The notes beneath the pieces were generated by a model. The model was given only the letters and a program-made list of their open reading frames with translations, made no database searches and was not told the DNA's origin. From the sequence record PQ724392.1: DNA of 64,000 nt. The stretch is one strand, 5' to 3'. Origin of the DNA: a phage. The position numbers and the translations under genes were made by a program. Below, one piece after another: positions 23,036 through 63,870 of the stretch. Position 1 is the first letter of the stretch; every line of letters starts with the position of its first letter.

Positions 23036-23075
23036 TTTAGACTCCAGGTTTTGTTTGTTAACTCAGTATGGAATC

Positions 23076-23104
23076 ATTATGTCTTATCTTAATCTGGTTG
23101 TAAA
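23076..23104 (-). promoter_or_regulatory. PeSL-like early promoter (sigma70-type) upstream of ORF 22754-23035
   Basis: On the - strand: TTTACA-N17-CATAAT followed by the conserved leader GATTCCATACTGAGTTAACA...GGAG. Confidence 0.55.
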
Positions 23105-23111
23105 CAACTTT

Positions 23112-23119
23112 TATAAATA
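23112..23119 (+). promoter_or_regulatory. T4-type late promoter for gp24
   Basis: Exact TATAAATA 27 nt upstream of the gp24 ATG. Confidence 0.6.
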
Positions 23120-23145
23120 AAGTATATCACAAAAGGAAAGCGCAA

Positions 23146-24426
23146 ATGGCAAAGATTAACAAATTACTGCGCGAGTCAACTATTACTACCAGCAACTCCT
23201 TGGGCCGCCCGAATCTTGTTGCTTTGACCCGCGCTACGACTAAATTGATTTACCGCGATATCATCGCTGAACAACGTACTAACCAGCCTGTTGCTGCACT
23301 GTATGGTGTTAAATATCTTACTCCTGATAACGAATTCAGTTTCCAGACGGGCGCTACTTATGGAGGTGAAGTCGGTTCTAAAGACCGTACAACTATTCCA
23401 GAGTTAGCTACAGCCACTCAACCTGTGGCTAAAGGCGAATATGTAAAATACCAAAATATCGTTTATAAAGCTCTGGTTGATAATCCATTTGCATCGACCA
23501 CAGAAACAGTGTTATCTGATGTTCTGCAAGAAGGTCTTATTGCATCGACTATTCGTTTAGTTCCTGATGCGGCACACACCGAGAAATTCGAAGCTGGTGA
23601 TGTTGAAATTAGCAATGCTGTATTCCAGGTTAACAAATGGAATGCCCCGGTTAAAACACGTAAATTGAAAACTGCATTAACTGTTGAACTTGCTCAGGAT
23701 ATGGAAGCAAATGGTTTTAACGCTCCTGCATTCTTGGAAGACCTGCTTGCCACTATTATGGCAGATGAAATTAACAAAGATGTTCTTCAGTCTCTTATTA
23801 CCGTTTCCAAGCGTTATAAAGTAACTGGCGTTTCTGACAATGGCACCATCGATTTAACATACGATGCAGCCCCAGAAGGTGCACGTAAACTGTACGAACT
23901 GGTTTGCGAAATGAACTCCGAAATTCAGAAAACTACATCTTATTCCGGTACCTTTGTTGTTGCCTCTAGCCGTGTTGCTGCTATGTTGGCCGGTTCTGGT
24001 TGGTTGAAACACAGGCCAGAAGATGAGCAATGGCTCCCCGAAACAGCGTACGGTTATTTGATTAATGGCCTCCCTGTATTCTGTGATGTTAACAGTCCAT
24101 TGGATTATGTAACTGTTGGTGTTAAAGAAAATTACGGCGGAAACGAAGTCGTAGGCTCAATTTTCTATGCTCCTTATACCGAAGGCCTGGACTTGGATGA
24201 TGAAGAGCACGTTGGTGCGTTTAAGGTCATTGTGGACCCAGACAGCTTGCAGCCATCTATCTCTCTGATGGTTCGTTACGCACTTTCAGCTAACCCGTAC
24301 ACCGTTGCTAAAGACGATAAAGAAGCTCGTATTATCGATGCAACCAATATGGATTTAATGGCCGGTCAGAGCAATATGTCTTATCTGCTCGGTGTTAAAC
24401 TTCCGCCAATCATTTATGAGGCGTAA
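23146..24426 (+). CDS. 24: Head vertex protein gp24 (copy 1)
   Basis: 426 aa (T4 427 aa); late promoter at 23112-23119; AAGGAAA Shine-Dalgarno. Confidence 0.85.
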   Translation: MAKINKLLRESTITTSNSLGRPNLVALTRATTKLIYRDIIAEQRTNQPVAALYGVKYLTPDNEFSFQTGATYGGEVGSKDRTTIPELATATQPVAKGEYVKYQNIVYKALVDNPFASTTETVLSDVLQEGLIASTIRLVPDAAHTEKFEAGDVEISNAVFQVNKWNAPVKTRKLKTALTVELAQDMEANGFNAPAFLEDLLATIMADEINKDVLQSLITVSKRYKVTGVSDNGTIDLTYDAAPEGARKLYELVCEMNSEIQKTTSYSGTFVVASSRVAAMLAGSGWLKHRPEDEQWLPETAYGYLINGLPVFCDVNSPLDYVTVGVKENYGGNEVVGSIFYAPYTEGLDLDDEEHVGAFKVIVDPDSLQPSISLMVRYALSANPYTVAKDDKEARIIDATNMDLMAGQSNMSYLLGVKLPPIIYEA

Positions 24427-25710
24427 ATGCAAAAGATTAATGCACTAATTCACGAATCAACATTAACGGCGGCCAACCAGGTCGCCCGTCCTAATTTGCT
24501 TTCTTATACTCAGGCTACGAATAAACGAATTTTTAAAGCACTCGTGGCCGAACAGAAAACTACCCAGCCTGTTGCAGCCCTGTATGGTGTTCGTGTTCTG
24601 AACCCAGATGATAAAATGACTTATCTCGGTGGAGCAACATTTGCAGGTCAGATTGGTATGTTCGAGCGTAAGAATATTCCAGAATTTACAAACAAAGACG
24701 AAGCTTATGCAGTCGGCGATATGTTCCAGTTTGAAAGTGTTGTGTTCAAAGTTTTGGAAGCATCCCCATTCGCCGGTACACTCGAAACTGATTTAGGTGA
24801 AGTTATTTCTGAAGCCATTGCTGCTGGGCATATAAGAATGATGTCAGATGCTGCTTTCACTGATAAATTTGAAAAGGGGCATCCTGAAATTGCTGAAGCT
24901 GGTTTTCGTATCGATAAATGGCAGACTGAAGTTAAATCCAGAAAGTTGAAAACTTCTTTAACTGTCGAGCTTGCCCAGGACCTGGAAGCAAACGGTTTTG
25001 ATGCAACAGACTTCATCGATAATATTCTCGGCATTCAAATGGCAGAGGAAATTAATAAGGATGTACTGCAATCTCTTATTACTGTTAGTTCCCGTTTCAA
25101 GGTGCAAGGTGTTTCTGAAAAAGGTGTATTGAATCTTACTGACCCGAAATATGATAACGCACAGGACCGCGCACGAACCCTGTATTATTATATGTGTGAA
25201 ATGAATTCTGCAGTTCAACGTCAGACTTCGTTTGCTGGTACATATGCAGTTGCTTCTTCCCGTTGTGCAGCTATTTTAGCCGCTTCTGGCTGGGTTGAGA
25301 AAAAGGAAGACCAGGATGAATTGGCCTATGGTGTTCTGAAGAACGGTTTGCCTCTTTACGCTGATATGAATAGTCCATGTGATTATGTTATTGTTGGTGT
25401 AAATGCAGATATGGGTGAAGGTCAGACGGTCGCATCTTTATATTATGCGCCTTATACGGAAGGACTTAGCGAAGTTGATGATGAGGGTGATACCTCGGTT
25501 GGGGAATTCAAGGTTATTGTTGACCCTGAAAGCTTACAGCCTACGGTTGCACTGTTAGCTCGTTATGCTTTGACTGCAAACCCTTACACCGTTGCTAAAG
25601 ATGATAAAGAAGCTCGCCTTATTGATGGAGCTGATATGGATAAGATGGCCAACCAAAGCCAATTGAGTTCTTATCTTGGCGTTAAACTTCCACCGCTGGA
25701 AAAAGAATAA
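24427..25710 (+). CDS. Head vertex protein gp24 paralog (copy 2)
   Basis: 427 aa; roughly 50% identical to the preceding gp24 along its length (e.g. shared QPVAALYGV, ARPNL, YAPYTEGL, ANPYTVAKDDKEAR motifs); starts 1 nt after the copy-1 stop. Confidence 0.8.
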   Translation: MQKINALIHESTLTAANQVARPNLLSYTQATNKRIFKALVAEQKTTQPVAALYGVRVLNPDDKMTYLGGATFAGQIGMFERKNIPEFTNKDEAYAVGDMFQFESVVFKVLEASPFAGTLETDLGEVISEAIAAGHIRMMSDAAFTDKFEKGHPEIAEAGFRIDKWQTEVKSRKLKTSLTVELAQDLEANGFDATDFIDNILGIQMAEEINKDVLQSLITVSSRFKVQGVSEKGVLNLTDPKYDNAQDRARTLYYYMCEMNSAVQRQTSFAGTYAVASSRCAAILAASGWVEKKEDQDELAYGVLKNGLPLYADMNSPCDYVIVGVNADMGEGQTVASLYYAPYTEGLSEVDDEGDTSVGEFKVIVDPESLQPTVALLARYALTANPYTVAKDDKEARLIDGADMDKMANQSQLSSYLGVKLPPLEKE

Positions 25711-25730
25711 GGGCCTTGCGGCCCTTTTTT
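25711..25730. terminator. Bidirectional terminator between the gp24 paralog and convergent rnlB
   Basis: GGGCCTTGCGGCCC hairpin followed by TTTTTT; an A-run on the other side overlaps the rnlB stop. Confidence 0.7.
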
Positions 25731-26736
25731 ATTCACTAATTAATGCAATCCATACATGTCTTAATGTTTCTTTTACATTTGCGATAAGTTGCTTTTTAAC
25801 TTCAACAGGATTTTCTGTCTGGGTTAATTCAAGTCCTTCACGACCCGCTTCTTCCAGGATATCCTGGACAGTCAAACCCATTACCTTTCCAAAATCCTTA
25901 GGTGTTACTTCCCCAATCTTACTGATAACATTATTGATACGGTTGACAGTCACATAATCAGTAAACTTCCATAAAACATCCAGGTCTTCCTGTGACAACA
26001 CAACTGCAGCTTTAATAGGCTTATCAGACTTTTTCTTTTCACTGAATTTAGAGTTCTTGCATTTAATCGCTACGCGCTCGCCGTTATATAACCAGGCAGG
26101 AACATCAGGTTTTAATACAAATCCTTCAGCAGTGAATACTTTACCTTCCACCTTTGCATCAAAATCAGTGGTATTTGCTGTAGTCAATCCTGCGTTATCC
26201 ACTGTAAAATTGTAATCAGGGACCACAGAATCCAGGTCATTAGGGAGCTTAATCAAGTCTTCAAAACTACCTGTGGCCAGGCGTGGAGCAACTTTAAACT
26301 TATGAATAATACAAAAGGCTTCCATAAGTGTGTCAGTCAGGACGGATTCAGAGCCATCTTCCTTAGTAACGCGGATATCAAACACATAGAAATCTTTATC
26401 GCCGTAATCCACATTCTTCTGAATACCTGTACCAGCAAACTCACCATAAATCTGGTAAGCCTGGTAATTAATATCCTGTAAAAGTTTCTGCACAGATTTA
26501 ATAGAATCTGCGTAGTTCTTTAATACAATTTCATAACCATAGAAATCTTCTGCAGGTAAGATAGGTCCAGTGCGTTTCGCGCATGTCACATTGTCTTGTT
26601 CAATAATTAATGAAAAATTGGTACCATGAATCTTTTCACGCGCTACCCATTCACCGCTGGTGAAGCCTTGCAGGCGAATCTTTTCAATGAACTTGTTGTT
26701 ATAGTGATTTTCAAGGCTGTTGTATTTCTTAAACAT
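25729..26736 (-). CDS. rnlB: RNA ligase 2
   Basis: 335 aa; near-collinear match to T4 Rnl2 (MFKKY.SLENHYN.KFIEK...[12 protein letters not shown]...KRTGPI). Confidence 0.9.
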
Positions 26737-26833
26737 AATCTCTCACTTTTGATGTTATAAATATCATTATAAATTAGACCCACTATACTTTCTTTCTCTG
26801 AAAGGAATTAATAGTTGCAAAGGGTCTAGAACC

Positions 26834-26859
26834 ATTATACCGCATTTTTATTTGAAGCA
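26834..26859 (-). promoter_or_regulatory. MotA-type middle promoter upstream of rnlB
   Basis: On the - strand: TTTGCTTCA, 13 nt, TATAAT, then GGTTCTAGACCC, the same downstream block as the uvsY promoter. Confidence 0.5.
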
Positions 26860-26866
26860 AAAAGGG

Positions 26867-27130
26867 TCAGAATTTTACATACAGCATTGGCTTGGATTCT
26901 TGCCAATCATAATTCCAGGTAAAAGATGTAAATTTTTCTGCTCGCAGAAATTCAGATATCTTTGCGCGGTTTCCTTCTTCATACTCTTTTTCAGAAACTG
27001 CCATATTAACAGCATCTTTGCCGTTCTCGGCGGCGGCAATAGCCACTTTGCGAAATATAGAAATAAAGTCATTTGCAACTTTATCTTGTGACTCTTTGGC
27101 TATTTGACGTAGTTCTTCTGCGAATGTCAT
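26867..27130 (-). CDS. Hypothetical protein (87 aa)
   Basis: ORF in the rnlB-hoc interval, coupled to the upstream ORF (ATGA overlap). Confidence 0.4.
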   Translation of the reverse strand: MTFAEELRQIAKESQDKVANDFISIFRKVAIAAAENGKDAVNMAVSEKEYEEGNRAKISEFLRAEKFTSFTWNYDWQESKPMLYVKF

Positions 27131-27330
27131 TTCTTCACCTTTTTGTTATTCAAACGTTTACGATAAACAATCTTTTCTTTCGCTTTAAATTTAGCTTTGG
27201 CTTGTTCTACATCAACCCAGGCCTTTGCCATCTCTTTAGCAGTCCCGCCTAATACCTTGGCGATTTCAATAAATGTCATGCCAGATTCATGCAGAAAATG
27301 TACTTTAACCTTATCCATAATGATTCTCAT
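27127..27330 (-). CDS. Small basic protein (67 aa) with a putative helix-turn-helix
   Basis: Helix-turn-helix-like segment (MTFIEIAKVLGGTAKEMAKAW) followed by a K/R-rich tail. Confidence 0.4.
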   Translation of the reverse strand: MRIIMDKVKVHFLHESGMTFIEIAKVLGGTAKEMAKAWVDVEQAKAKFKAKEKIVYRKRLNNKKVKK

Positions 27331-27474
27331 GTTGAGTTAGTGAAGCTATCTTAACATGGAATTTTTAACTTGTAAACATGATTTTTATGCCAGATGGACC
27401 AATTGTATGGTATGGCCACAAAGACTTACCGGAGAAGGGGCCAGGCAACGTTTGCTCAGTACCATAAAAATAAA

Positions 27475-27495
27475 GGGACCCGAAGGTCCCTTTTT
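27475..27495. terminator. Terminator downstream of hoc
   Basis: GGGACCCGAAGGTCCC hairpin with a T-run on the + side and A-rich flank on the other. Confidence 0.6.
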
Positions 27496-27497
27496 AA

Positions 27498-28631
27498 TTA
27501 ATAAACGTAATCGTATATAATACCAGTTTCTAAAGCGGTGCGATGAATAACTCGACCATTACGAGATTCTTGTACATCAACCTCTGGATAGTCGGTAATC
27601 ATTTTTTGAAGTGTGTATCGGTGCAAATAATACGGGCTATCTGGGTCATCAGTTTTCCAGTCTTGCCCAGCAAGAGTCATTTTCTGAATTTCATCCATAA
27701 CCCACCAACCACACCAGATATAAGCTGAATTACGTACTGGCAATGGGTGAATATATGGTAATTCGCCATCTGGAACTGGTGCGACTTTAGCCGTGACTGT
27801 TACATTACCAGTTTTGGTAACGGTTACAGGGTTATAATCTGTAGCAGATACAACAACAGAAACTTCAATTAACTGGGAACCTTCGGCGCTTGTATCGATT
27901 GCCAAAGTATCCGTGGTGCCAACTACAGGAGAACCGTCTTTCTTCCAAGAATAGGCAAAAGTAGCACCAGCAGGCGCACCGGCTACAGTAGCTTTAAAAG
28001 AAGCCGGAGTTCCTTCAGGAACATTAATAGAGGTCGGTGCTAAAGTAACAGAAACACCCGACATAGTTTTCTTAACAAAAGTTACCGCAGCTCCTTTAGA
28101 TGCGGTGCCATTATTATAATCGGGTGCAGAAACAGTAACTTCACAGTTCAATGTATAATTTGCTTCTGCTGATTCGGTGACGGTAATAGTTTTATCAGTT
28201 TGACCTGCGATTACGCTAGTGTTACGTTTCCAAACGTAAGCGATTGTTGCACCAGAAGGAGCGCCTGTCACGTTAGCAGTAACAACTTGAGATTGCCCCA
28301 CTTCTTTAGTAACAGAGGCAGGGTCTAAAGTCAATGTAATAGCAGGCATTGTTTTATTCTGGATAGTTAAAGTTGTTTCGGCTTCAGCTGTTTCTGGTTC
28401 GCCGTCCGCTGGTGTAGTTGTTGCAACAACTTTAATAGTCTTACTGCCTGCTGGACCAACAGCAACATAATCCATTGCAGCAGTCACAGAAGATTGAGGA
28501 ACGCCATCAACGGTCCAGACAAATGATTCGGTACCTTCAACTGCAGCACCGGAACCGGTCGCAGTGAAATTGGTTGTTGCTCCAATAACGGCCGTAGCCG
28601 CCAAAGGAGCAATAGCTACGGTATAAGCCAT
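27498..28631 (-). CDS. hoc: Highly immunogenic outer capsid protein Hoc (Ig-like repeats)
   Basis: 377 aa (T4 376 aa); internally repeated Ig-like modules (e.g. V(T/A)GAPxGAT(I/F)AY.WK); position between rnlB and inh. Confidence 0.7.
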   Translation of the reverse strand: MAYTVAIAPLAATAVIGATTNFTATGSGAAVEGTESFVWTVDGVPQSSVTAAMDYVAVGPAGSKTIKVVATTTPADGEPETAEAETTLTIQNKTMPAITLTLDPASVTKEVGQSQVVTANVTGAPSGATIAYVWKRNTSVIAGQTDKTITVTESAEANYTLNCEVTVSAPDYNNGTASKGAAVTFVKKTMSGVSVTLAPTSINVPEGTPASFKATVAGAPAGATFAYSWKKDGSPVVGTTDTLAIDTSAEGSQLIEVSVVVSATDYNPVTVTKTGNVTVTAKVAPVPDGELPYIHPLPVRNSAYIWCGWWVMDEIQKMTLAGQDWKTDDPDSPYYLHRYTLQKMITDYPEVDVQESRNGRVIHRTALETGIIYDYVY

Positions 28632-28640
28632 AATAAACCC

Positions 28641-29306
28641 TTATTTTAAAGTGACAAAAGATGAGTTACGAGTTTCTCGTACTAGAACAGACCCATTACG
28701 ATTGATGTAATAAATCAAACTGAATAGGGTTTGATGCGCGGTGGGATGTGGGAAAGCAGTTGGACGTTCTTTCCAATCCGGAGTCTCGGCAATCCACTGA
28801 TAAATCCACCATGGAACAGTACAGAATCCAGGGTTCTTGCCAATAAGCATAAGATTTGGACTAAAGTTTTTTGGTAGAGCAAATACAGGTTTTTCAGATT
28901 CGATAACCTTAGCAACAGCTGCTTCGAACTTTTCTTCGATAAAAGGAACATCTTCTTCGACCAAAACAACTGGTTCTTCGATTTCAACAACTTCAACCTT
29001 TGCTTCGGTTGGAGCATCAAATAAGAGTTTAGCTTCTTCTTTAGCTGACTCATCGCCATCAAATTTAGCACCTGACAATTCATCGTCGGCATCGATAAGG
29101 TCAGTGATGCTCAGGCCTTCATTATCATCAGGCATAGGCATGTCAGCAAATGCTTTAAGTCCTGCTTCCAGGTCAGCCAACATATTATCAAAGGTTTTTG
29201 TTTTCTTAACATCAACGCCAAGTGATGCTGCGTATTCGGCTAATTTTTCTTTGGCTTCTTTTTTCTCGAGGACACGAATTTCCTCAATGTAGTTCTTGTC
29301 AATCAT
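28641..29306 (-). CDS. inh: Inhibitor of prohead protease (Inh)
   Basis: 221 aa (T4 226 aa); position between hoc and uvsW; acidic central region. Confidence 0.6.
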   Translation of the reverse strand: MIDKNYIEEIRVLEKKEAKEKLAEYAASLGVDVKKTKTFDNMLADLEAGLKAFADMPMPDDNEGLSITDLIDADDELSGAKFDGDESAKEEAKLLFDAPTEAKVEVVEIEEPVVLVEEDVPFIEEKFEAAVAKVIESEKPVFALPKNFSPNLMLIGKNPGFCTVPWWIYQWIAETPDWKERPTAFPHPTAHQTLFSLIYYINRNGSVLVRETRNSSFVTLK

Positions 29307-29324
29307 GATGAACCTCGGTTAGTG

Positions 29325-29332
29325 TATAAATA
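29325..29332 (+). promoter_or_regulatory. T4-type late promoter for uvsW
   Basis: Exact TATAAATA 29 nt upstream of the uvsW ATG at 29361. Confidence 0.6.
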
Positions 29333-29360
29333 TAGATATATTTATTACCTTGGAATCATC

Positions 29361-32119: not shown

Positions 32120-32147
32120 AATGTATCCAATGTAAGGGTCTAGAACC

Positions 32148-32172
32148 ATTATACAGCCATAAAATTAAAGCA
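32148..32172 (-). promoter_or_regulatory. MotA-dependent middle promoter for uvsY
   Basis: On the - strand: TAATGCTTTAA (MotA box TGCTTTA), 12 nt, TATAAT, then conserved GGTTCTAGACCC; about 30 nt upstream of the uvsY ATG. Confidence 0.6.
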
Positions 32173-32562
32173 TTAACCGTTTTGACTTAGCTGAATCCTG
32201 ATTTGTTCGAGGGTGTCAGGGTCATCAACAATGCTGAACTGAACCGTTACGATAATGGAGTTATCATCATACATAGGGACAACTGCAACCTGTAGATTGC
32301 TTATTCTTGGTTCGAAGTTCCGCACCGCGGAGACGATGTTGCGTTTAATGGTATCTGTAATTAACGGTGTGATATTCTCAAAAAGCTGATTACTTATATC
32401 ACATCCAAATTCAGGCATAAAAGGCCGTGACCCTTTTCTTGTGGTGATTATTCCCAGAAGACTGTTCTTAACAGACCTTGCACCAGTTACTTTAGCAACG
32501 TCTTTATCCCAACTTGTAGATAAGTCGGGAGATACATCGCTATACATTTTGTTTATATTCAT
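32173..32562 (-). CDS. 25: Baseplate wedge protein gp25
   Basis: 129 aa; collinear with T4 gp25 (..INK.YSD..P......W.KDV...LG.RS.KNSLLGIITTRKGSRPF.PEFGCD); TAAATG coupling with gp26. Confidence 0.85.
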   Translation of the reverse strand: MNINKMYSDVSPDLSTSWDKDVAKVTGARSVKNSLLGIITTRKGSRPFMPEFGCDISNQLFENITPLITDTIKRNIVSAVRNFEPRISNLQVAVVPMYDDNSIIVTVQFSIVDDPDTLEQIRIQLSQNG

Positions 32563-39430: not shown

Positions 39431-39437
39431 AAAGAAA

Positions 39438-39459
39438 GGGACCCGAAGGTCCCTTTTTT
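39438..39459. terminator. Bidirectional terminator between gp54 and the convergent alt-downstream ORF
   Basis: GGGACCCGAAGGTCCC hairpin followed by TTTTTT, with an A-run upstream. Confidence 0.7.
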
Positions 39460-39748
39460 ATTTGCGGAATGAAATGAAACCTGCTGCAGTCATTACAGCT
39501 TCTTTCTTAGCAAAGACTGTAATTGCAATTGGCGCTTCAGATTCAAGCTGACCAGTTACTACACCATTAAAAATATTTTCTGTTTGTTCAGAATTTACAA
39601 AGTTCTCAACAGGGCGAAGGTCAAACTTCTTATCTTCACCAAATACACGGCGTAATTCATTACCCACTGCGCTGTCAAACTCTTCTGAAGCCGGGATAAC
39701 ATTCTCAACTACCAGTTCCTGACCGTTAAAGCGAAAAGATGATTTCAT
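39458..39748 (-). CDS. Hypothetical protein downstream of alt (96 aa)
   Basis: Internal ATG at 39748 has a GAGGAAA Shine-Dalgarno; position corresponds to the T4 alt.-1 region. Confidence 0.5.
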   Translation of the reverse strand: MKSSFRFNGQELVVENVIPASEEFDSAVGNELRRVFGEDKKFDLRPVENFVNSEQTENIFNGVVTGQLESEAPIAITVFAKKEAVMTAAGFISFRK

Positions 39749-39811
39749 TTTGTTTTCCTCATGTGCAATTGATATGAACATTGTATCGCACTTCCTTGTG
39801 CTTGTAAACCC

Positions 39812-41872
39812 CTATGAAAGGAATTTAGGAGGAATAGCTTCCAAATTAATACAATTAGCAAGAATACCAAGACCTTGATTGACTTTCTTCGTTACCCCAG
39901 AGGATGCAAACGATGCAAAGTCAACAGATTCTACTGGCTCTTCTGTTTCCTCGCCCTGATAAACGACAAGCTCACCAGTTTCCATCAACACATCACCATC
40001 ATAGATAACTGCATTTTCATCCAGTTGGTCCGTAGTCTGGATATCAGCTTCCAGCATTTTGACGTTCGCGTTTCCTTGATACGAAGCATCAGTAATTTTG
40101 GTAATCTTAACTACAGTCCCACGAGGAAGAATAACTTCCTGCTCGGATGGGTTGCCTGACAATTCCCCAGGAACAATTACGTTAATTAAGTCCGCTCCAG
40201 AAATTTTCCAACCAACATGCATCATTACGTGTTCGCGGCGTGCTTCCGGCATATCTGGTAAAACAATTTCGTCATCAGCCTGGAAAGATGTCCCATCACG
40301 ATAGTCCTGATGAACTGCAGCCATAGCAACGTTCGCCACCCAGCCACCAAAGATAATCGGTTTAAACGACGTTGATACATAGTTCCTGAAATAAAATAAT
40401 TTAGATTTCTTAATTTTATCAAATGTAGGAACGTTTAAATATTGACCACGCCAAAGAGTTGTATTAGGTGGCAACTTATGTCCAATTTCAAAGGCCGAAT
40501 CCAATTCCTTAATTGTTTCGACAACTCTGTCTAGATTTAGGAATTCAGCTTCTTCTTCATAATATTTGCCCATCAAATAATTATTAATATCGGCATAGTT
40601 TGCTCCACAATAATCTGCAATTGCTTCTCGCTGACCATAATGGAAACGGTTGTCAGTATACCCTGCTGTGAAATTAAGAGTATTTTCTGATGCTTCTTCA
40701 GCAAAGTCTTTAACTGCAACACGAATGGCGCTTGTGTATTCTTTTTCCCAGAGCGAGGCTGCATAAGTGGCTGCATCCACGTTAGGAGGAGCATCATTCA
40801 TTTTTCTTTCAATAAATGCGGCTTTGCGAAGGTTAAGAATCTCTGCGCATGATTCGGCAAAAATCTGCATCTGCTTCATACTACCAACTGGAGCACGTTT
40901 AAGTTCGCGATGCATACGGTTAAAAATTGGGTCAGAGTCTTCAACACGAATTTCTTCTTTCCAAACACCATTTGCTCGCATAGCCGTATCTGCTGCGCGC
41001 ATACGAGCCATAGTATTCGTTTCGGAAGGTCGAACAAAAATTTCCAGTTCTTCATAATCATCGATAAGTTCTGCCGTAGCCGGTCGACTAAACTTAGCAG
41101 CTTCTGCATCGATTTCGTCCCAACCTTCTGGCACGGAATCACTTGGAGCATACTGGGCTTGTGCAATAGCTCGGCGACTGATTTTAGTTTTCTGGGCAAC
41201 AGCAGCATCGGTCTTTTTGTTTGCTGCGTCAATCAGAATCTCGGCTGCAATTTCTTGTTTGGATACTTGTGCACCATTATCTTTATTGGTGAATACATCA
41301 CCAACTTTAGTTTCGACTTTTTTATATTTCTCAGGGACTGGTGGCATACCATCGACTGAAAGCAGGTCAACACCCCTTTTGTACATAATTACATAAGCGT
41401 TCTTTTTACCAAGGCCAGAAGCATTCGGAAGAACATGATAACGTCCGCTGGTTTTCATTTGAATCAGTCGATTCATAATACGAATAATAGCTTGGTCTTG
41501 TCCTTTCATCTTTTTGGATGGGAAACGGAACAAGACTACATCAGGTTTGCCTAGTTTAATGCTTTCCCAGACTGTAGTAAAAATCAAGTTAATTGCATCA
41601 AGAGGTTTTTCACCTAAACCACCCTTCAGAGGAACAGCATGGCCATGTGAAGTCCCGGATAACAGAAATACCTCGGCAATTGCATCACCGCGTTTATATT
41701 GTTTAACTGTTTCTTTGCCCGTGAATTGCATCAAACGGGCCATAAGAGAATTGGTCCCAGGAACACCGAATTGCCAAACCTGTGGGACCTTGTATTTTGG
41801 ATTCATATTAATGACAGGATAACCGAAGGTTTCGATATATTTGTCAAAGAGTTCATTTAATTGTTCAGACAT
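39812..41872 (-). CDS. alt: Alt-like ADP-ribosyltransferase (packaged RNA polymerase-modifying enzyme)
   Basis: 686 aa (T4 Alt 682 aa); position next to gp54 on the opposite strand as in T4; central segment ...KISRRAIAQAQ... recalls T4 Alt. Confidence 0.75.
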   Translation of the reverse strand: MSEQLNELFDKYIETFGYPVINMNPKYKVPQVWQFGVPGTNSLMARLMQFTGKETVKQYKRGDAIAEVFLLSGTSHGHAVPLKGGLGEKPLDAINLIFTTVWESIKLGKPDVVLFRFPSKKMKGQDQAIIRIMNRLIQMKTSGRYHVLPNASGLGKKNAYVIMYKRGVDLLSVDGMPPVPEKYKKVETKVGDVFTNKDNGAQVSKQEIAAEILIDAANKKTDAAVAQKTKISRRAIAQAQYAPSDSVPEGWDEIDAEAAKFSRPATAELIDDYEELEIFVRPSETNTMARMRAADTAMRANGVWKEEIRVEDSDPIFNRMHRELKRAPVGSMKQMQIFAESCAEILNLRKAAFIERKMNDAPPNVDAATYAASLWEKEYTSAIRVAVKDFAEEASENTLNFTAGYTDNRFHYGQREAIADYCGANYADINNYLMGKYYEEEAEFLNLDRVVETIKELDSAFEIGHKLPPNTTLWRGQYLNVPTFDKIKKSKLFYFRNYVSTSFKPIIFGGWVANVAMAAVHQDYRDGTSFQADDEIVLPDMPEARREHVMMHVGWKISGADLINVIVPGELSGNPSEQEVILPRGTVVKITKITDASYQGNANVKMLEADIQTTDQLDENAVIYDGDVLMETGELVVYQGEETEEPVESVDFASFASSGVTKKVNQGLGILANCINLEAIPPKFLS

Positions 41873-46121: not shown

Positions 46122-46192
46122 TTTATTCTCCAGTTGTTTTCATTTGTTGGTACAGGTCTATAATATCATAACCTGTACCAAAGTAAACTGTT

Positions 46193-46561
46193 TTATGCGA
46201 CTTTACTCCAATTATCTAAATTTAATTCACCCTTAGCTTTCATTTTTTCAATCAGAAGGTCTGCAGTGGTGCGACCATTTTGATACCATGTAACATCTTC
46301 AGAATAACCAGTTTCTTCATCTTCATAGGTCTTACAACAAATCTTACCCAAAATCAAAGTTTTCAGTTCGTAGGTATCACCAGTAAAAAAGTTTGTTACC
46401 ATAATTTTCCAAGAGAAGTCATCAGAAGGACCTTCAGGAGTCATGCAACCAACAAATTCAAACTGTTCTTTATACAAGTGCCATTGCATCTCTTTAGTTT
46501 CAATGGCTTTGTAACCGTCGTGGTCTTTACCTTTGATGTATGAGTTAAGATTGATTTTCAT
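46193..46561 (-). CDS. Hypothetical protein (122 aa); cargo of a PeSL-like early-promoter cassette
   Basis: Preceded by TGTACA-N17-CATAAT and the conserved leader ...CCATACTGAGTTACACAATAAAACACTGGAGCATAAAATG. Confidence 0.5.
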   Translation of the reverse strand: MKINLNSYIKGKDHDGYKAIETKEMQWHLYKEQFEFVGCMTPEGPSDDFSWKIMVTNFFTGDTYELKTLILGKICCKTYEDEETGYSEDVTWYQNGRTTADLLIEKMKAKGELNLDNWSKVA

Positions 46562-46602
46562 TTTATGCTCCAGTGTTTTATTGTGTAACTCAGTATGGAA
46601 TC

Positions 46603-46631
46603 ATTATGCACTGGTCAAATCCTGTTGTACA
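46603..46631 (-). promoter_or_regulatory. PeSL-like early promoter upstream of ORF 46193-46561
   Basis: On the - strand: TGTACA-N17-CATAAT plus the conserved leader; a terminator lies immediately upstream. Confidence 0.55.
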
Positions 46632-46643
46632 CCCTTTTATGAA

Positions 46644-46670
46644 AATAAAAAAGGGACTCCGAAGAGTCCC
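46644..46670 (-). terminator. Terminator after the 53-aa ORF, upstream of a PeSL promoter
   Basis: GGGACTC-CGAA-GAGTCCC hairpin with a T-run on the - strand. Confidence 0.6.
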
Positions 46671-46675
46671 TGAAC

Positions 46676-46837: not shown

Positions 46838-47234
46838 ATTAAATTCTCTTTAAAAATAGAATGCAGGACTTATTGGCATTGCCTGCGCAAGCCCTCGAAG
46901 GGAACATTAGGTTTCGGATATTTAACGACAGGATAACCATAAACCTCGTCATCATACCTTATAGCTCTTATCTGTTGCACACCGTTAGCTTAAAGGTTCC
47001 GGGTTCGATTTCTCGAGGATAAGATATATACTGATGGATATATAGGCCTTGAGGCGTACTCCCGATTGGCCATCACCTCGGGGTAGCATGCACTTGCCGC
47101 TATAAGAATAACATTCAAGAGGTACACCGTAAAACTGCCGGGTCTTAAAACTATAATGATTCGCAAATCATTAATCAGACGGTTCGACGGCTCCTCGATT
47201 TTAGCTCACACTAAGGCAGTGAATCTCCAATAAA

Positions 47235-50276: not shown

Positions 50277-50336
50277 TTTGTTTTCCTCATGTGTTGATGA
50301 AATTCATTATACACCATCCATGGTGAAAGTAAACAC

Positions 50337-52311: not shown

Positions 52312-52315
<4 letters not shown>

Positions 52316-52800
52316 ACGCCAAGCTCCTTATAAAGTTCTTCGCGACAAGTTTTAAGGATTTTACCAGTTTCATAAGCTGCGCTTTCAGAAACATCACCAA
52401 GTGTAGCGGCAGCTTGCATTTGTCCATGACGTTTAGCCGCGTATTCAAAACTTTTTACTAGCTCACGAATACGTTCTTTTTCATTGTATTCTTCAATGAA
52501 TTCTGGGTATTCCCAAACAGGTCGCATCATACGATACCAATGCTGAATAGTAATATAATTACTTCCATCCAGATTAATAATTTGTGAAGGCTTAATAGCA
52601 CCCGGAGCATAAAAAGTTACCTGTCTTACTACATCAATACCGTCCACCATAGCCCAAGCAAAATCAAAAGTTGCCTTCTTTTCAATTGGTGTACTTGCAC
52701 AGGACCCTAATTTTAAGAGCTTTTGTAATGCAGGGGATTTAACACCTGAAATGTATTCAGGATTAGCTACAAAAGAATTGTCACGTAAAGTCATAGTCAT
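52312..52800 (-). CDS. Hypothetical protein (162 aa); PeSL-cassette cargo inserted between the spanin genes and the pseT.1-like gene
   Basis: Internal ATG at 52800 with a GAGGAA Shine-Dalgarno; directly preceded by TGTACA-N17-TATAAT with the conserved AAAGTAGTGTACA upstream block. Confidence 0.45.
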
Positions 52801-52828
52801 TTCCTCAAATTTTATAATCCGTAGGAGC

Positions 52829-52857
52829 ATTATACTCTGCTCCCATGAGTTTGTACA
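52829..52857 (-). promoter_or_regulatory. PeSL-like early promoter upstream of ORF 52312-52800
   Basis: On the - strand: AAAGTAGTGTACA-N17-TATAAT; the -10 sits in a GGAGCA...TGCTCC hairpin. Confidence 0.5.
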
Positions 52858-52961
52858 CTACTTTCCAAAAAGACCTTGAACACATAAAGTGGCCGCAATT
52901 CCAAAACAAAAACAGAATGCGCCAAATCTAACAATATCCCAACCAAGGCTACATGTCTCTA

Positions 52962-53252: not shown

Positions 53253-53602
53253 TTGGTGAGCTCCTGGAAGTCCTGGGCGAACTTATCAAAAGACTGATTA
53301 ATCTGTTTTTCAACTAATTTAGGCTTCGCTACCACAACCTTAGTACGTTTTGCATCTGCACGGAGTTTATCATTTTCCTTCTGTAGGAGTTCAACATATT
53401 CCTGACGCTCCTGGTCAAGGAGATTAATTTGATTAATCTGGTCTTTTACTGATTGCAGATTTTTCGCGTTATCTTCTGCAACTTTGGTGACTTCCGCCAC
53501 CGCCGTCTTGAGATTATCTACTTTTGCTTTTAGATAGAAACCACTACCAGCAGTTACTACCAGGGCGAGCATAAGCCCTGCAGTGAGATTACTTATTTGC
53601 AT
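53249..53602 (-). CDS. Inner-membrane spanin (i-spanin, PseT.3-like)
   Basis: 117 aa; N-terminal transmembrane helix followed by charged coiled-coil sequence; paired with the o-spanin as in T4. Confidence 0.7.
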   Translation of the reverse strand: MQISNLTAGLMLALVVTAGSGFYLKAKVDNLKTAVAEVTKVAEDNAKNLQSVKDQINQINLLDQERQEYVELLQKENDKLRADAKRTKVVVAKPKLVEKQINQSFDKFAQDFQELTK

Positions 53603-54096
53603 AACTTGATGATTACCTCAACAATATCATCCTGGGATAAACCATTCAGGAGGATGTGATTTGTACTGTCAGATGCTGAAATGCGGAACTGATTACCAAC
53701 TTCATCCGCCATATCATCCTGGGTTAACACTGGGTGTTTAATCCCCAGGCGGTGTTGAAGTGTCAGGGGTTCAACCACAACATAACAAACACATCCATTG
53801 ATATGTACATTAGGTTGGGTCTGGTTAATGAACACTTCTGCATCATATTTAACCAAATGGTTCTTTAAGAAGTCAACCATTTCAGGAACAGATTCATGCA
53901 GTGCTTCTTTCCGCTCTTCTGATTTTTTATCACGATATTCTTTTTGTTTCGCCTTCAACTTTTTATTGGAGGCGAGTTTTTTCCGCAGGTCAGTCATGAG
54001 ACCAATTTTCTTGGTCCCTTTATAGACATAAATTCCGTCATGACGGTCACCATATTCATTGACAATCATTTCGTTTGAAATCAGTTGCATATCCAT
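53593..54096 (-). CDS. alc: Alc-like protein (candidate host transcription-elongation inhibitor), assigned by synteny and size
   Basis: Internal ATG at 54096 (GAGGAAA Shine-Dalgarno) gives 167 aa, the length of T4 Alc; located between rnlA and the spanins as alc is in T4. Confidence 0.5.
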   Translation of the reverse strand: MDMQLISNEMIVNEYGDRHDGIYVYKGTKKIGLMTDLRKKLASNKKLKAKQKEYRDKKSEERKEALHESVPEMVDFLKNHLVKYDAEVFINQTQPNVHINGCVCYVVVEPLTLQHRLGIKHPVLTQDDMADEVGNQFRISASDSTNHILLNGLSQDDIVEVIIKLCK

Positions 54097-54109: not shown

Positions 54110-54343
54110 TTAGTAGCGGTTGTAACCTCTAGGGCCAAAAGAGTTGGCACCCAGGCGTTCATCTTTCTTTTTGGCTCTTGCTCTAAACCCAGAATCACTT
54201 GTTTGAGCTTTCAATTCTTTTAACAATTTGGCCTTCAGGTCAGTAATGAAACCAATCCGGCGGTCTCCCTTGTAGACATAGATTCCATCATTTCTGTCAC
54301 CATATGCCTGTGTAACTCTGTCATTTGTAATTAAGTTTAACAT
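54110..54343 (-). CDS. Truncated paralog of the Alc-like N-terminal region (77 aa); PeSL-cassette cargo
   Basis: Shares YGDR(N/H)DGIYVYKG.(R/K).IG(F/L)(I/M)TDL(K/R)(A/K)KL with the N-terminus of the adjacent alc-like gene; internal ATG at 54343 with GAGGA Shine-Dalgarno; preceded by TGTACA-N17-CATAAT. Confidence 0.45.
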   Translation of the reverse strand: MLNLITNDRVTQAYGDRNDGIYVYKGDRRIGFITDLKAKLLKELKAQTSDSGFRARAKKKDERLGANSFGPRGYNRY

Positions 54344-54374
54344 GTTTTGGTCCTCATCAGTAGTTGATGGAACC

Positions 54375-54403
54375 ATTATGTATAGAAAGAAGGGGCTTGT
54401 ACA
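54375..54403 (-). promoter_or_regulatory. PeSL-like early promoter upstream of the Alc-fragment ORF
   Basis: On the - strand: GGGGTGTACAAGCCCC (the -35 TGTACA inside a short GGGG/CCCC stem), N17, CATAAT. Confidence 0.5.
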
Positions 54404-54413
54404 CCCCTTTTTA

Positions 54414-59456: not shown

Positions 59457-59489
59457 GTTTTCCTCTATAGTTCAAAAGGGTTGGGAACC

Positions 59490-59735
59490 TTAAATTGTCT
59501 CTGGTAGTTCCGAAGTCATTTCATCATTATATTCTTCTTCTGACTGGACAGTGATGTCAAAATATGACTGGACATCACCGGCTGAATCATGACAGTAGAC
59601 ACGTTCATGTCGTTTGGCCAGAAATTTGATTCCGTCAATAGTGATATAAGAATTTGGTGCAGGTAAATCCTGTTCGGTAAATTGTGGCATTTCAAAAATG
59701 ACTTCGCCTGATTGGCGTTTAAATCGTAAATTCAT
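59490..59735 (-). CDS. Hypothetical protein (81 aa)
   Basis: ORF between td and nrdA; position corresponds to the T4 nrdA.1/nrdA.2 region. Confidence 0.4.
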   Translation of the reverse strand: MNLRFKRQSGEVIFEMPQFTEQDLPAPNSYITIDGIKFLAKRHERVYCHDSAGDVQSYFDITVQSEEEYNDEMTSELPETI

Positions 59736-59794
59736 AATTTCCTCTCATTAAATTTTAAATAATTATATCACGGTGTCCTGAAGCGGAATCGTAT

Positions 59795-60094
59795 TTATGT
59801 ACCCAAATCCTCGAGCGAAAAGGTATCTTTGAAAAGTTTATTAACGACCAGAGCGATAACATCACCATGGCATGCTTTCGGTTTGCATGTACAAGCTAAT
59901 CGCATTCCGCGAAGGGTTTCAAGGTGTTCTCTTTTGATTTCACCCGATTTAATCTTTGATATGAAATATTCTTTAAAGTTCTTTATATTTTCTTCTCGGG
60001 TACCATCTTTGTATGGGTTTCCCCACATGGTACCCCGTTGAATATTCACATCAAAGTCGGATTGATATTTGTTAACAACCCGACAGGCTTTCAT
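59795..60094 (-). CDS. DUF4326-like small protein (99 aa)
   Basis: Motifs WGNPY, GTREE and LRG..L.C.C.PK.CHGDV match the DUF4326 family pattern as recalled; preceded by a sigma70-like promoter around 60100-60150. Confidence 0.5.
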   Translation of the reverse strand: MKACRVVNKYQSDFDVNIQRGTMWGNPYKDGTREENIKNFKEYFISKIKSGEIKREHLETLRGMRLACTCKPKACHGDVIALVVNKLFKDTFSLEDLGT

Positions 60095-60155
60095 AGTAGG
60101 AAGTTAAGTCCGACCATTATGGCCAGAAATAAAATACCGGCAATTTGAATTTTCA

Positions 60156-60352
60156 TTAGACCTCGACAATAAACCAGATAGACCGATTGAAATCATCGTA
60201 TTCATACGATTTAATCACACGCATAACATAAAGTTCTTTGTTCTGGACAAAAATCGTTGTTTTCTCTTTAGGCAGTTCATCGAGACTTATATTCATTTTT
60301 TCAAACAGCACCTCATTGGTGCCGTATCTATTGTTTACTATACGAATATTCA

Positions 60353-60353
<1 letters not shown>
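60156..60353 (-). CDS. Hypothetical protein (65 aa)
   Basis: ORF with its start immediately downstream of the td stop. Confidence 0.35.
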
Positions 60354-62129
<1,776 letters not shown>

Positions 62130-62139
62130 TATATTTTCC

Positions 62140-62379
62140 TCACGCTTTCTTGGCAACTTTCCAGTCAGCTTTAAATTGGTCAACGTCAGAGTGGTAAATC
62201 CAGAAACCGGATGAGCTACCATCTTCATAAAGAGGACAACCATCACACTCATCTTTCCAACCCATTTCACACAAAGCTTGTTCAGCTTTTTCCAGAGCTT
62301 CTGGATTGTTACCTTGGATTGTGAAGTACCATTTGCCTTTAACTTCTGAATCTTTGATGCTCTCACGTTGTAATTTCAT
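62140..62379 (-). CDS. Hypothetical protein (79 aa) with a CxxC motif; PeSL-cassette cargo
   Basis: Preceded by TGTACA-N17-CATAAT and the conserved leader CCATACTGAGTTAACAACTAAAACACTGGAGAATAAAATG; contains ECDGCP. Confidence 0.45.
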   Translation of the reverse strand: MKLQRESIKDSEVKGKWYFTIQGNNPEALEKAEQALCEMGWKDECDGCPLYEDGSSSGFWIYHSDVDQFKADWKVAKKA

Positions 62380-62420
62380 TTTATTCTCCAGTGTTTTAGT
62401 TGTTAACTCAGTATGGGACC

Positions 62421-62449
62421 ATTATGTCATAGCCCCATTTGGTTGTACA
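62421..62449 (-). promoter_or_regulatory. PeSL-like early promoter upstream of ORF 62140-62379
   Basis: On the - strand: AAAAAAGTAGTGTACA-N17-CATAAT plus the conserved leader. Confidence 0.55.
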
Positions 62450-62457
62450 CTACTTTT

Positions 62458-62712
62458 TTAAATTTTATCAAGCCATTTGCCAAGTTTAATCATTTCCTTG
62501 TTGGCTTTTTCCATACTTCTGAACTTAACTAATAAAGGATATGTATCTACACCCATAACAAGATTGGTTGCAAGACTGTGCTCACCCACAAGCCATAATG
62601 AGTAGGTTTGAACATCCAGACCATAATTTCTGTCTTTATGCAAACGCACACCCATCACTTCAAATTGTTCACTGGCTTTTTCCACTGCATCCAGGAAATC
62701 ATCTTTAGTCAT
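62458..62712 (-). CDS. Hypothetical protein (~84 aa)
   Basis: Track ORF begins at TTG; start moved to the internal ATG at 62712, directly downstream of the preceding stop. Confidence 0.4.
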   Translation of the reverse strand: MTKDDFLDAVEKASEQFEVMGVRLHKDRNYGLDVQTYSLWLVGEHSLATNLVMGVDTYPLLVKFRSMEKANKEMIKLGKWLDKI

Positions 62713-62713
62713 G

Positions 62714-63079
62714 TTAAATTCCAAAGGTAGCTTTAATCAAGGCAACAACTTCTGCCGCATTTTTGTGATTTACCTGTACATGAATGGTTTGGGTATCAAC
62801 AGCAGGAGCATCACCATCAACTTCCATGAAATGTTGGAATTCCCATTCACCAAGTTCAAAGTACTCATCAGCATCACCCATACTATTCAGGATGGTGCCA
62901 TCTTTCATTTCAACTTTTTCAACAAAATAATCACCTTCAATATAACACATATCCAGGACTTTGAAGGAATTACCATGTTGTTCCATCAACTTGACCATAC
63001 ACGAATTATCATCAGGACTACCAGCGATGAATTGTTTTTTGGCAGCGGGGTCTAATACGTAAAATTTACCAGTTTCCAT
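62714..63079 (-). CDS. Hypothetical acidic protein (121 aa), paralog A of the 63429-63791 gene
   Basis: Shares ME.GK.Y, DDYFEL/DEYFEL and a C-terminal (I/V)..L.KA(F) pattern with the 120-aa ORF about 700 bp upstream. Confidence 0.45.
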   Translation of the reverse strand: METGKFYVLDPAAKKQFIAGSPDDNSCMVKLMEQHGNSFKVLDMCYIEGDYFVEKVEMKDGTILNSMGDADEYFELGEWEFQHFMEVDGDAPAVDTQTIHVQVNHKNAAEVVALIKATFGI

Positions 63080-63138
63080 TTTAATTTCCTCATATTCAAT
63101 TGAGGGAACATATTATCATGTTCCCGTTTGTTTGTATA

Positions 63139-63366
63139 CTAAGCTTCAATCAAATTCATATAAAATTTAGTGTCTTCAGGGTACATACCATCACAATATT
63201 CATTTTGCATAAAGCGGGTAATGTCTTCAAGAGGACCTTGGACTTCAATTTGAATACCAAAGACTTCAGTATCTTTAATGTAAGTCATACACAAAGAAGG
63301 ATAACGATTGCGGATAACTTCGTAAGTGTATTCAAAATCAACGATATCAATATTAACCTTAGCCAT
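63139..63366 (-). CDS. Hypothetical protein (75 aa)
   Basis: ORF preceded by a GAGGAAAATAAAATG leader and a hairpin/promoter-like element at 63385-63425. Confidence 0.4.
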
Positions 63367-63428
63367 TTTATTTTCCTCATGTAGTTGATAGGTCTATAAT
63401 ATCTCAACCATAGACCCGTTGTAAACTG

Positions 63429-63791
63429 CTATTTGAAAGCTTTTTGTAGAAGTTCAATGATTTGGTCGACGTTATTAGCATCCACAACACAATTAATAGA
63501 AACCGCCCCAGAAGGTGTTTTTGCACAATTAGAGTATTCGCGGAAGCAATAAAACTCTTCTTCGCTAAGTTCAAAATAATCATCACCCATGCCATCATCA
63601 TTATAGATTGCACCATTAGCACAAATGATTTCGGTTACATAATCATAGCCGTCTGCACTTGATATTGATTTAACTTCAAACCAACCGCCATTTTCTTGGA
63701 TGATGTCGACCATACTGGCATTCGATGAACTAATATCAATGAAAGATTTAATACGGTGTGGATTGAACTCATATTTTTTGCCGATTTCCAT
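63429..63791 (-). CDS. Hypothetical acidic protein (120 aa), paralog B; PeSL-cassette cargo
   Basis: Preceded by TGTACA-N17-CATAAT and a GAGGAAATAAAAATG leader; paralogous to 62714-63079. Confidence 0.45.
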   Translation of the reverse strand: MEIGKKYEFNPHRIKSFIDISSSNASMVDIIQENGGWFEVKSISSADGYDYVTEIICANGAIYNDDGMGDDYFELSEEEFYCFREYSNCAKTPSGAVSINCVVDANNVDQIIELLQKAFK

Positions 63792-63829
63792 TTTTATTTC
63801 CTCAGTTGTTATCAGTAGTTGATGGAATC

Positions 63830-63858
63830 ATTATGCCTTAGCTCAAAGGACTTGTACA
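63830..63858 (-). promoter_or_regulatory. PeSL-like early promoter upstream of ORF 63429-63791
   Basis: On the - strand: AAAAAGTAGTGTACA-N17-CATAAT; terminator hairpin immediately upstream at 63880-63895. Confidence 0.55.
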
Positions 63859-63870
63859 CTACTTTTTGAA

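Follow-up and report, generated by a model that had tools for sequence, protein, structure and literature searches.

Near-identical promoter-like blocks stand upstream of small open reading frames (ORFs) on one strand of a 64,000-nt stretch of phage DNA (accession number PQ724392.1; the whole stretch is referred to as the window), and they raised the question of whether such blocks made up a special family of mobile regulatory cassettes with lineage-specific cargo or the ordinary early promoters of the phage. An earlier note on the window had listed six of them on the - strand, each ahead of a small ORF, and had likened them to the promoter early stem-loop (PeSL) cassettes of RB49-like phages. 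These elements were very probably general sigma70-dependent early promoters (Pe) of a Gaprivervirus, arranged in the composite PeSL layout. They are of an already known kind, namely T4-type early promoters in PeSL format, and no new element type is involved; what is new here is limited to a genus-specific consensus (TGTACA/CATAAT), two stereotyped leaders, and clear chimeric cassettes. By megablast, the 44-64 kb part of the window matched the Escherichia phages TH22, UPEC07, and TH55 at 97.5% identity with full query coverage (100%), and phages VR20, VR25, VR26, and SP18 at 91-96% identity; the annotated relatives belonged to Straboviridae, Tevenvirinae, genus Gaprivervirus (T4-like coliphages). 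Late structural genes were located on the + strand (1-39 kb), and the early/middle region, from alt to gene 32, on the - strand (39-64 kb).

All six listed elements were found on the - strand at precisely the claimed -35 to -10 spans, and the pattern T[GT]TACA-N17-[CT]A[TC]AATG gave seven matches in the window versus 0.04 expected from dinucleotide shuffles, the seventh (39780-39808) being absent from the earlier list. A position matrix derived from the seven copies scored its own copies at 44-70 bits (shuffle maximum 6.2), and the next-best match was a degenerate member upstream of frd.2b (9.8 bits). The likeness extended beyond the two hexamers, as the earlier note had held: the seven-sequence alignment displayed invariant columns at the A-tract, the G before -35, ACAA after -35, G.T after -10, and GGA..A..ATG at the ribosome-binding site, which supports the description of the elements as putative early-promoter cassettes of the sigma70 type that have flanks and leaders in common. 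The block AAAGTAGTGTACA was exact in three copies and had two mismatches in two further listed copies, the copy at 46.6 kb not being among these. The A+T content of the upstream 25 nt was 64-84% in six of the seven copies and 56% at 39808 (window 59%), and the whole element (stop codon, A/T-rich tract, promoter, Shine-Dalgarno (SD) sequence, and start codon) fitted into intergenic gaps of 37-131 nt. The spacers varied (3-10 of 16 positions shared between copies) while the leaders shared 15-18 of 20, and this combination makes functional constraint likelier than recent duplication. The seven copies were organized as follows (A and B denote the two leader types described below; z is the folding z score):

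63789-63903, - strand: frd.2a cassette (z -2.98) upstream of frd.2a (63429-63791), composed of a terminator hairpin (63877-63898) plus T-run with A-tract AAAAAGTAG (terminator scan), -35 TGTACA (63853-63858), -10 CATAAT (63830-63835), leader type B (GATTCCATCAACTACTGAT), SD GAGG, and ATG (63789-63791)
62377-62457, - strand: frd.1 cassette (z -2.83) upstream of frd.1 (62140-62379) and adjoining the stop codon of a gp254-like ORF, with -35 TGTACA (62444-62449), -10 CATAAT (62421-62426), a 10-bp hairpin ATGGGGCTAT/ATGGTCCCAT around -10, leader type A followed by GGAGAATAAAATG (perfect match to the strong RegB-site consensus GGAGRAYARAA), and ATG (62377-62379)
54341-54413, - strand: alcN cassette (z -2.5) upstream of alcN (54110-54343) and alc (53593-54096), with a hairpin AAGGGG-TGTACA-AGCCCCTT that loops out -35 (54398-54403), a T-rich run behind it making terminator and promoter overlap, then -10 CATAAT (54375-54380), leader type B, SD GAGG, and ATG (54341-54343)
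52792-52880, - strand: orf160 cassette upstream of orf160 (52312-52794), with GGAAAGTAG, -35 TGTACA (52852-52857), -10 TATAAT (52829-52834), a hairpin GGGAGCAG/TGCTCC around -10, a leader of its own (neither A nor B), SD GAGG, and ATG (52792-52794)
46559-46675, - strand: 30.8 cassette ahead of gene 30.8 (46193-46561), at the place syntenic with the early promoter of 30.8 in T4, with a terminator hairpin (46652-46671) plus T-run, -35 TGTACA (46626-46631), -10 CATAAT (46603-46608), leader type A, GGAGCATAAAATG, and ATG (46559-46561)
39746-39830, - strand: Alt.-3 cassette (the seventh copy) upstream of an Alt.-3-like ORF (39458-39748, DUF5498), with -35 TTTACA (39803-39808), -10 TACAAT (39780-39785), and B-like leader ATCAATTGCACATGAGGAAAACAAAATG, the unit being closed by a terminator at 39435-39456
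23033-23125, - strand: orf93 cassette ahead of orf93 (22754-23035), which runs antisense in the interval from gp23 to gp24(1), with AAAGTTGTTTACA containing -35 at 23099-23104, -10 CATAAT (23076-23081), leader type A, and GGAGTCTAAAATG, the unit being closed by a bidirectional terminator at 22722-22748

Inspection of the intergenic regions further gave divergent early-type promoters with 16-18 nt spacers:

63367-63428, - strand: divergent member upstream of frd.3 (63139-63366), TTTACA-N18-TATTAT (z -3.42), with an 11-bp hairpin around -10 and then leader B ATCAACTACATGAGGAAAATAAAATG, forming one flank of the frd.3 cassette
63080-63138, - strand: degenerate member upstream of frd.2b (62714-63079), TATACA-N17-TAATAT (z -2.51), with a 9-bp hairpin over -10, forming the other flank of the frd.3 cassette
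50277-50336, - strand: divergent member ahead of orf180, with TTTACT-N16-TATAAT followed by leader ATCAACACATGAGGAAAACAAAATG
46122-46192, - strand: divergent member upstream of 30.7, TTTACT-N16-TATTAT (z -4.0), with a 12-bp hairpin over -10 and then GGAGAATAAAATG, ortholog of the T4 30.7 promoter

The same promoter profile was not restricted to such cargo. The matrix, spanning from -12 relative to -35 through +8 past -10 and applied with a cut-off of 12 bits to the VR20 genome (put together from five pieces), recovered 27 sites, all of them on the early (-) strand (shuffle maximum 10.3): the genes downstream were homologues of T4 immediate-early genes (motB, modA, regB, denV, ndd, the motA operon, 55.6, nrdC.8, mobD.5, Alt.-3, 30.8, alc, and frd.1/frd.2) and several hypothetical genes. 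BLAST located 10-13 cassette places per Gaprivervirus genome. The idea of a special family marking lineage-specific cargo was thus contradicted, since one and the same profile described 27 VR20 early promoters in front of classic T4 early genes; the 30.8, alc, and frd promoters were, moreover, syntenic with T4 early promoters. T4 itself carried AAAGTTGTTTACA upstream of 30.8, the related AAGTTGTTTACA upstream of alc, and AAAAAGTAGTTTACA...TACTAT...ATCAA upstream of frd.1. Because the block AAAGT(A/T)GTTTACA was present in T4 at the promoters syntenic with the 30.8, alc, and frd cassettes, the conserved upstream block of the earlier note corresponds to the extended -35 of T-even early promoters, with a T-to-G change in this genus. 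T4 early promoters have extra consensus regions beyond UP, -35, TGn, and -10 (Hinton 2010, PMC2988021). Compared to T4 Pe, the elements in the window had the same strand and positions at 30.8, 30.7, alc, and frd and the same AAAGT(A/T)GTTTACA block plus A/T-rich upstream region, but they mostly had G as the second base of -35, their -10 began with C, and their leaders were far more uniform than those at the orthologous T4 promoters.

This Gaprivervirus early-promoter consensus is usable to annotate early transcription units. Several ORF callers start at the ATG inside CATAATG, and the consensus therefore helps to correct start codons: the ATG inside -10 (CATAATG/TATAATG) at 54376 and 52830 lengthened the downstream reading frames, giving mechanical ORF calls of 88 and 172 amino acids (aa), respectively, for real products of 77 and 160 aa, with the true starts at 54343 (alcN) and 52794 (orf160). 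Over-long starts were also seen in the deposited annotations of relatives (172-178 aa for orf160 homologs; 267 nt for alcN in phage RZ).

The leaders were modules of about 20 nt: (i) A, ATACTGAGTTAC and (ii) B, ATCAACTAC. The earlier note had ascribed one conserved leader to most copies; the long leader GATTCCATACTGAGTTA was found in only three of the six listed copies (23, 46.6, and 62.4 kb), and the other three differed, those at 54.4 and 63.8 kb having another leader in common, G(A/G)TTCCATCAACTACTGAT (leader B), and that at 52.8 kb having neither. Strand counts in VR20 (early versus other) were 11/0 for CCATACTGAGTTA, 11/0 for GGAGAATAAAATG, and 13/2 for ATCAACTAC. The exact 22-mer ATAATG(A/G)T(C/T)CCATACTGAGTTA occurred 8-9 times per genome in VR20, VR25, and VR26 and sat before at least nine unrelated ORFs; further single occurrences were in a Dhakavirus and in a viral contig of 163 kb. 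Leader B (ATCAAC...) was common to JS98 and present as a shorter ATCAA in T4, and it is therefore old. A fixed-offset comparison of leader identity among T4, JS98, and the window was affected by false-positive pattern matches and register shifts and was used only qualitatively.

The strong RegB/S1 cleavage-site consensus is GG*AGRAYARAA (Uzan & Miller 2010, PMC3014915). At its 3' end, leader A read GGAGAATAAAA(TG), like the RegB/S1 sites in T4 early translation-initiation regions, the likeness being one of sequence: the consensus GGAGRAYARAA was exact at frd.1 and 30.7 and had 1-2 mismatches at 30.8 and orf93. The regB gene was encoded in VR20 and present in the genus, while the leader-B copies mostly contained GAGG and no RegB target; across VR20, the leader modules paired freely with GGAG or GAGG ribosome-binding sites. 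Messages with leader A would be translated strongly and later inactivated by RegB. Folding of the transcribed part of the leader gave no stable structure, the hairpins using untranscribed spacer bases, and the reading of the leader as a structured RNA was rejected on this prediction.

Fold analysis disclosed a hairpin in five to six of the seven window copies: (i) a canonical terminator hairpin at 63.8 and 46.6 kb, whose T-run was at the same time the A/T-rich upstream region; (ii) the hairpin looping out -35 at 54.4 kb; (iii) a hairpin enclosing -10 at 62.4 and 52.8 kb; and (iv) only a weak spacer hairpin at 39.8 kb. Bracketing by terminator hairpins, as claimed for several copies, was thus seen at several of them but was absent from the cassette at 23 kb. 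For the 27 VR20 promoter regions, the mean folding z was -1.68 (t-test, p 1.4e-5), with 11 of 27 below -2. The -10 stem in VR20, formed by spacer bases with bases just after -10, had 4.9 of 8 pairs in register versus 2.3-3.3 when slid by 1-3 nt, and its arms covaried (GGGGTC/GACCCC, GGGACC/GGTCCC, GGGAGC/GCTCCC, and GGAGTC/GATTCC). Termination and RegB cleavage would be expected at the cassettes from these features. Terminator hairpins that were nearly identical to one another (GGGACC-TTCG/CGAA-GGTCCC plus T-run), several of them bidirectional, also formed a family:

3025-3050, 22722-22748, 27472-27499, 39435-39462, 46652-46671, and 63877-63904: members of the terminator-hairpin family

In VR20, the block GGACCCTTCGGGGTCCTTTTTTATTTTAAAAAGTAGTGTACA represented a single terminator-promoter unit at two loci, with close variants at three more.

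PeSLs were defined in RB49/phi1 as a sigma70-like promoter with an A/T-rich upstream region and a 3' SD/ATG, with stem-loops at five possible positions; they were proposed as recombination sites, mini-circles were detected in RB49/phi1, and PeSL-like sequences were noted in JS98 (Arbiol 2010, PMC2839356). They were later extended to T4/PST (TTTACW-N17-TAYWAT) and nt-1/KVP40 (Comeau 2014, PMC4122927). The match to PeSLs drawn in the earlier note stood at the level of the sequence definition, which the elements fit, but this format was not restricted to RB49-like phages, being reported for T4/PST and nt-1/KVP40 as well, with PeSL-like sequences in JS98. Shared with PeSLs were the intergenic location, the length of about 60-115 bp, the order of stop codon, A/T-rich tract, -35/N17/-10, SD, and ATG, the G/C-rich stem-loops upstream, over -35, or over -10 (among the five published positions), the many copies per genome, and the chimeras together with small-ORF insertions, deletions, and replacements beside copies in relatives. 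Differences were as follows: (i) TGTACA/CATAAT here, compared to TTGACA/TATAAT in RB49 and TTTACW/TAYWAT in T4/PST; (ii) two stereotyped 20-nt leaders that stretched the conservation to the start codon; and (iii) an association with indels that showed no statistical enrichment in 20 kb. The literature searched, which did not include the VR7 genome paper, contained no description of these elements in Gaprivervirus.

A working model of the cassette can be proposed. The A/T-rich tract, often the T-run of the upstream terminator hairpin, would act as a UP-like region, followed by AAAGT(A/G)G, -35 T(G/T)TACAA, a free 16-nt spacer, -10 (C/T)ATAAT, and G.T(T/C)CC; transcription is predicted to start at an A about 7 nt past -10, and leader A or B and then an SD-ATG block would end the element. 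Host RNA polymerase would fire these promoters immediately upon infection, the hairpins would shield each unit from read-through, and the unstructured A/U-rich leader would give strong translation; where the SD is GGAGAATAAAA, the message may later be cut by RegB and shut off. Selection, together with occasional homologous exchange from copy to copy, would keep the cassettes alike, and such exchange would occasionally move, delete, or swap the adjoining small genes.

Traces of such exchange were present in the window and in its relatives. Within the window, the copy at 63858 shared 21 of 25 upstream bases with that at 46631 and 18 of 20 leader bases with that at 54403, and the copy at 46631 had its leader in common with those at 23104 and 62449, the spacers being unrelated. 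The gene frd.3, flanked by two family members, had frd.2a and frd.2b on either side in the window, VR20, UPEC07, RZ, and P479 and the gp254-like ORF and frd.1 on either side in VR25, VR26, and JS98, and it was next to gene 32 in T4; SP18 had no frd.3, and the frd.3 promoter/leader was there fused to frd.2b via a shared ATGAGGAAA.TAAAATG block (translation-initiation region, TIR). Chimeric promoters were found in two genomes: (i) the VR25 frd.3 promoter, whose 5' half was of the window frd.1 type (TAAAAAAGTAGTGTACA) and 3' half of the frd.3 type and (ii) the VR26 frd.2 promoter, composed of the frd.2a cassette, leader A, and the frd.2b TIR/start. In SP18, the terminator of the 30.8 cassette was separated from the promoter by an insertion of 30.6A with a terminator of its own, and VR20 and VR26 had the same cassette in the same context with different cargo (88 versus 68 aa). 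Dhakavirus IME341 (MH051917 25857-28909, positions 1468-1553) carried a Gaprivervirus-type TGTACA/leader-A promoter before frd.1, in a segment 95% identical to 62156-62458 of the window, while JS98 had TTTACC/TACTAT at this promoter and the IME341 frd.1 coding part was equally close to both; the two genera appear to have exchanged a promoter module here. The shuffling of cassettes and cargo proposed earlier was accordingly visible in relatives as chimeric cassettes, a moved frd.3, and swapped cargo. Chimeric promoters, the frd.3 relocation, and the promoter swap into a Dhakavirus are further cases, seen at the level of sequence in another T4-like genus, in which promoter/leader cassettes act as recombination patches that move or swap small early genes.

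Several observations weigh against the assignment of the elements as general early promoters in PeSL layout. Initiation at the cassettes is judged from sequence; TGTACA and CATAAT fit the sigma70 hexamers worse than TTTAC(A/T)/TATAAT of T4, so that promoter strength would have to come from the flanking blocks; the cassette at 23.1 kb had no hairpin on folding (z 0.04); the near-exact 20-nt leader modules exceed any established promoter or RegB requirement; and indel junctions fell in cassettes in 5 of about 12 events (44-64 kb) versus about 23% of gene junctions, a difference that was not significant (p about 0.12). An alternative is that the cassettes are dedicated mobile regulatory elements, rather than ordinary early promoters, carrying lineage-specific cargo in and out via mini-circles such as those of RB49/phi1 (Arbiol 2010, PMC2839356). 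The frd.3 gene between two cassettes and at three positions across phages, its absence from SP18, where the junction fell within the common leader/TIR, the chimeric promoters in VR25 and VR26, the insertion of 30.6A at the 30.8 terminator in SP18, and the unlike cargo behind an identical cassette in VR20 and VR26 would all be expected of such elements; however, most copies were syntenic with T4 and JS98 promoters and stood before conserved genes, the spacers were unconserved, no terminal repeats, target duplications, or associated recombinase were found, the junction enrichment was not significant, the other indels of the region were homing-endonuclease insertions or plain gene-boundary events, and orf160 was lost via a 5-nt TATGA microhomology rather than two cassettes. 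Such dedicated mobility is hence considered unlikely.

The uniformity of the leaders admits another explanation, in which A and B are cis-acting sites, either an operator for a protein that shuts off early promoters or a factor-bound element of the 5' untranslated region (5'-UTR). A 22-nt stretch of leader A recurred without change at 8-9 loci in each of the VR20, VR25, and VR26 genomes before unrelated genes with the adjacent spacers varying freely, leader B recurred in JS98 (ATCAAC) and T4 (ATCAA), and how T4 early promoters are shut off is stated to be unknown (PMC2988021); on the other side, no Rfam covariance model matched anywhere in the window at the gathering score, folding predicted no stable structure for the transcribed sequence, the modules combined freely with either ribosome-binding site, and homogenization through recombination between copies was directly visible and could suffice. 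Leaders acting as cis sites are thus rather improbable, and it is equally doubtful that A and B plus the G.TTCC discriminator form a recognition site for a phage factor instead of a passive by-product; if so, the candidate factor may be the activity that switches off T4-type early promoters minutes after infection, or the leaders may serve as a 5'-UTR tag sorting early mRNAs into RegB-sensitive and RegB-resistant classes. As for MotA/AsiA-dependent middle promoters or chance sigma70-like matches, a generic sigma70/terminator scan was non-discriminating (61 promoter-like sites versus 50 expected; 39 versus 50) and was set aside, meaning that hexamers alone prove nothing; but the -30 region was T(G/T)TACA in all copies with no MotA box ((a/t)(a/t)TGCTT(t/c)A, which in middle promoters is centred at -30 in place of -35), the genuine MotA-box promoters present at other sites of the window had a different layout, and the extended pattern (seven versus 0.04 expected) and the 27 VR20 profile matches on one strand make either origin extremely improbable.

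The absence of T4 counterparts claimed for the cargo failed for four of the six ORFs, as 30.8, Frd.1, and Frd.2 were T4 families and alcN was an Alc derivative, but it stood for orf93 (gp23/gp24 gap) and orf160 (pseT interval), the only two of the six without a Pfam/T4 family. The assignments were gp30.8 (PF06019) at 46.6 kb, Frd.1 (DUF5417) at 62.4 kb, and Frd.2 (PF03197, FRD2) at 63.8 kb, together with DUF5498 at 39.8 kb, named Alt.-3 in the VR20 annotation. The alcN product (77 aa; 54.4 kb) matched the first ~60 residues of the Alc family and was 48% identical to the N-terminus (~62 residues) of the full-length Alc encoded directly downstream; this Alc shared 56% identity with T4 Alc along its entire length of 167 residues. 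A split or frameshifted alc was rejected, the downstream ORF being a full-length 167-aa Alc and the 77-aa ORF an N-terminal paralog; such a paralog with the N-terminal domain only could modulate Alc. It was present in all Gapriverviruses examined (annotated as 'alcb' or 'inhibitor of host transcription') and absent from JS98 and T4.

The orf93 product belonged to PHROG 6003, was annotated in VR7 and JS98, and had four homolog clusters only. An orf160 homolog was found in JS98 with the same promoter upstream but was not annotated there: it lay behind the orthologous early promoter at 10590-11110 (-) of NC_010105, inside a 625-nt annotation gap. As orf93 and orf160 were also conserved among Dhakavirus relatives, neither is recent cargo. 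The orf160 promoter was kept in JS98, SP18, and P479, even with orf160 deleted; loss of orf160 in SP18/P479 by cassette-cassette recombination was rejected, because the junction was a 5-nt TATGA microhomology at two start codons. Structure prediction of one cargo ORF gave no informative result. Most of the supposed novel cargo drops off the list of anti-defence candidates, and the lineage-restricted small early genes that remain are only orf93, orf160, and the Alc N-terminal paralog.

The orf93 unit (23125-22722) and the Alt.-3 unit (39830-39435) resembled lambdoid morons in being self-contained promoter-ORF-terminator units that adjoined late genes, the orf93 unit being antisense to them; unlike morons, both had promoters from a genome-wide family and were conserved across genera rather than sporadic. 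The place of the orf93 unit, between gp23 and gp24, is occupied by segD in T4. Directly downstream of this antisense unit's position on the + strand were tandem gp24 (capsid vertex) paralogs (23146-24426 and 24427-25710), which had a 197-nt stretch of 73% identity and were named 24(1)/24(2) in VR7 and JS98.

Two further variable spots of the early/middle region lay away from early-promoter cassettes: (i) the small ORFs between 30.9 and rIII (46839-47166), replaced in VR20/VR25 and (ii) the nrdA.2/nrdA.1/orf65 block (59482-60343), which VR20, SP18, and VR25 lacked in part or entirely and which at one boundary adjoined a probable middle promoter at ~59777. In addition, a three-copy repeat (16665-16706, 26827-26868, and 32141-32182), reading TAGAACCATTATAC... 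on the + strand, corresponded on the - strand to a MotA box (TGCTTtA)-N12-TATAAT-GGTTCTAGAC, a T4-type middle promoter followed by a conserved block of its own. Two of these copies preceded rnlB and uvsY, while the third was located in the 204-nt gp18-gp19 gap, antisense into gp18, and overlapped the + strand late promoter TATAAATA.

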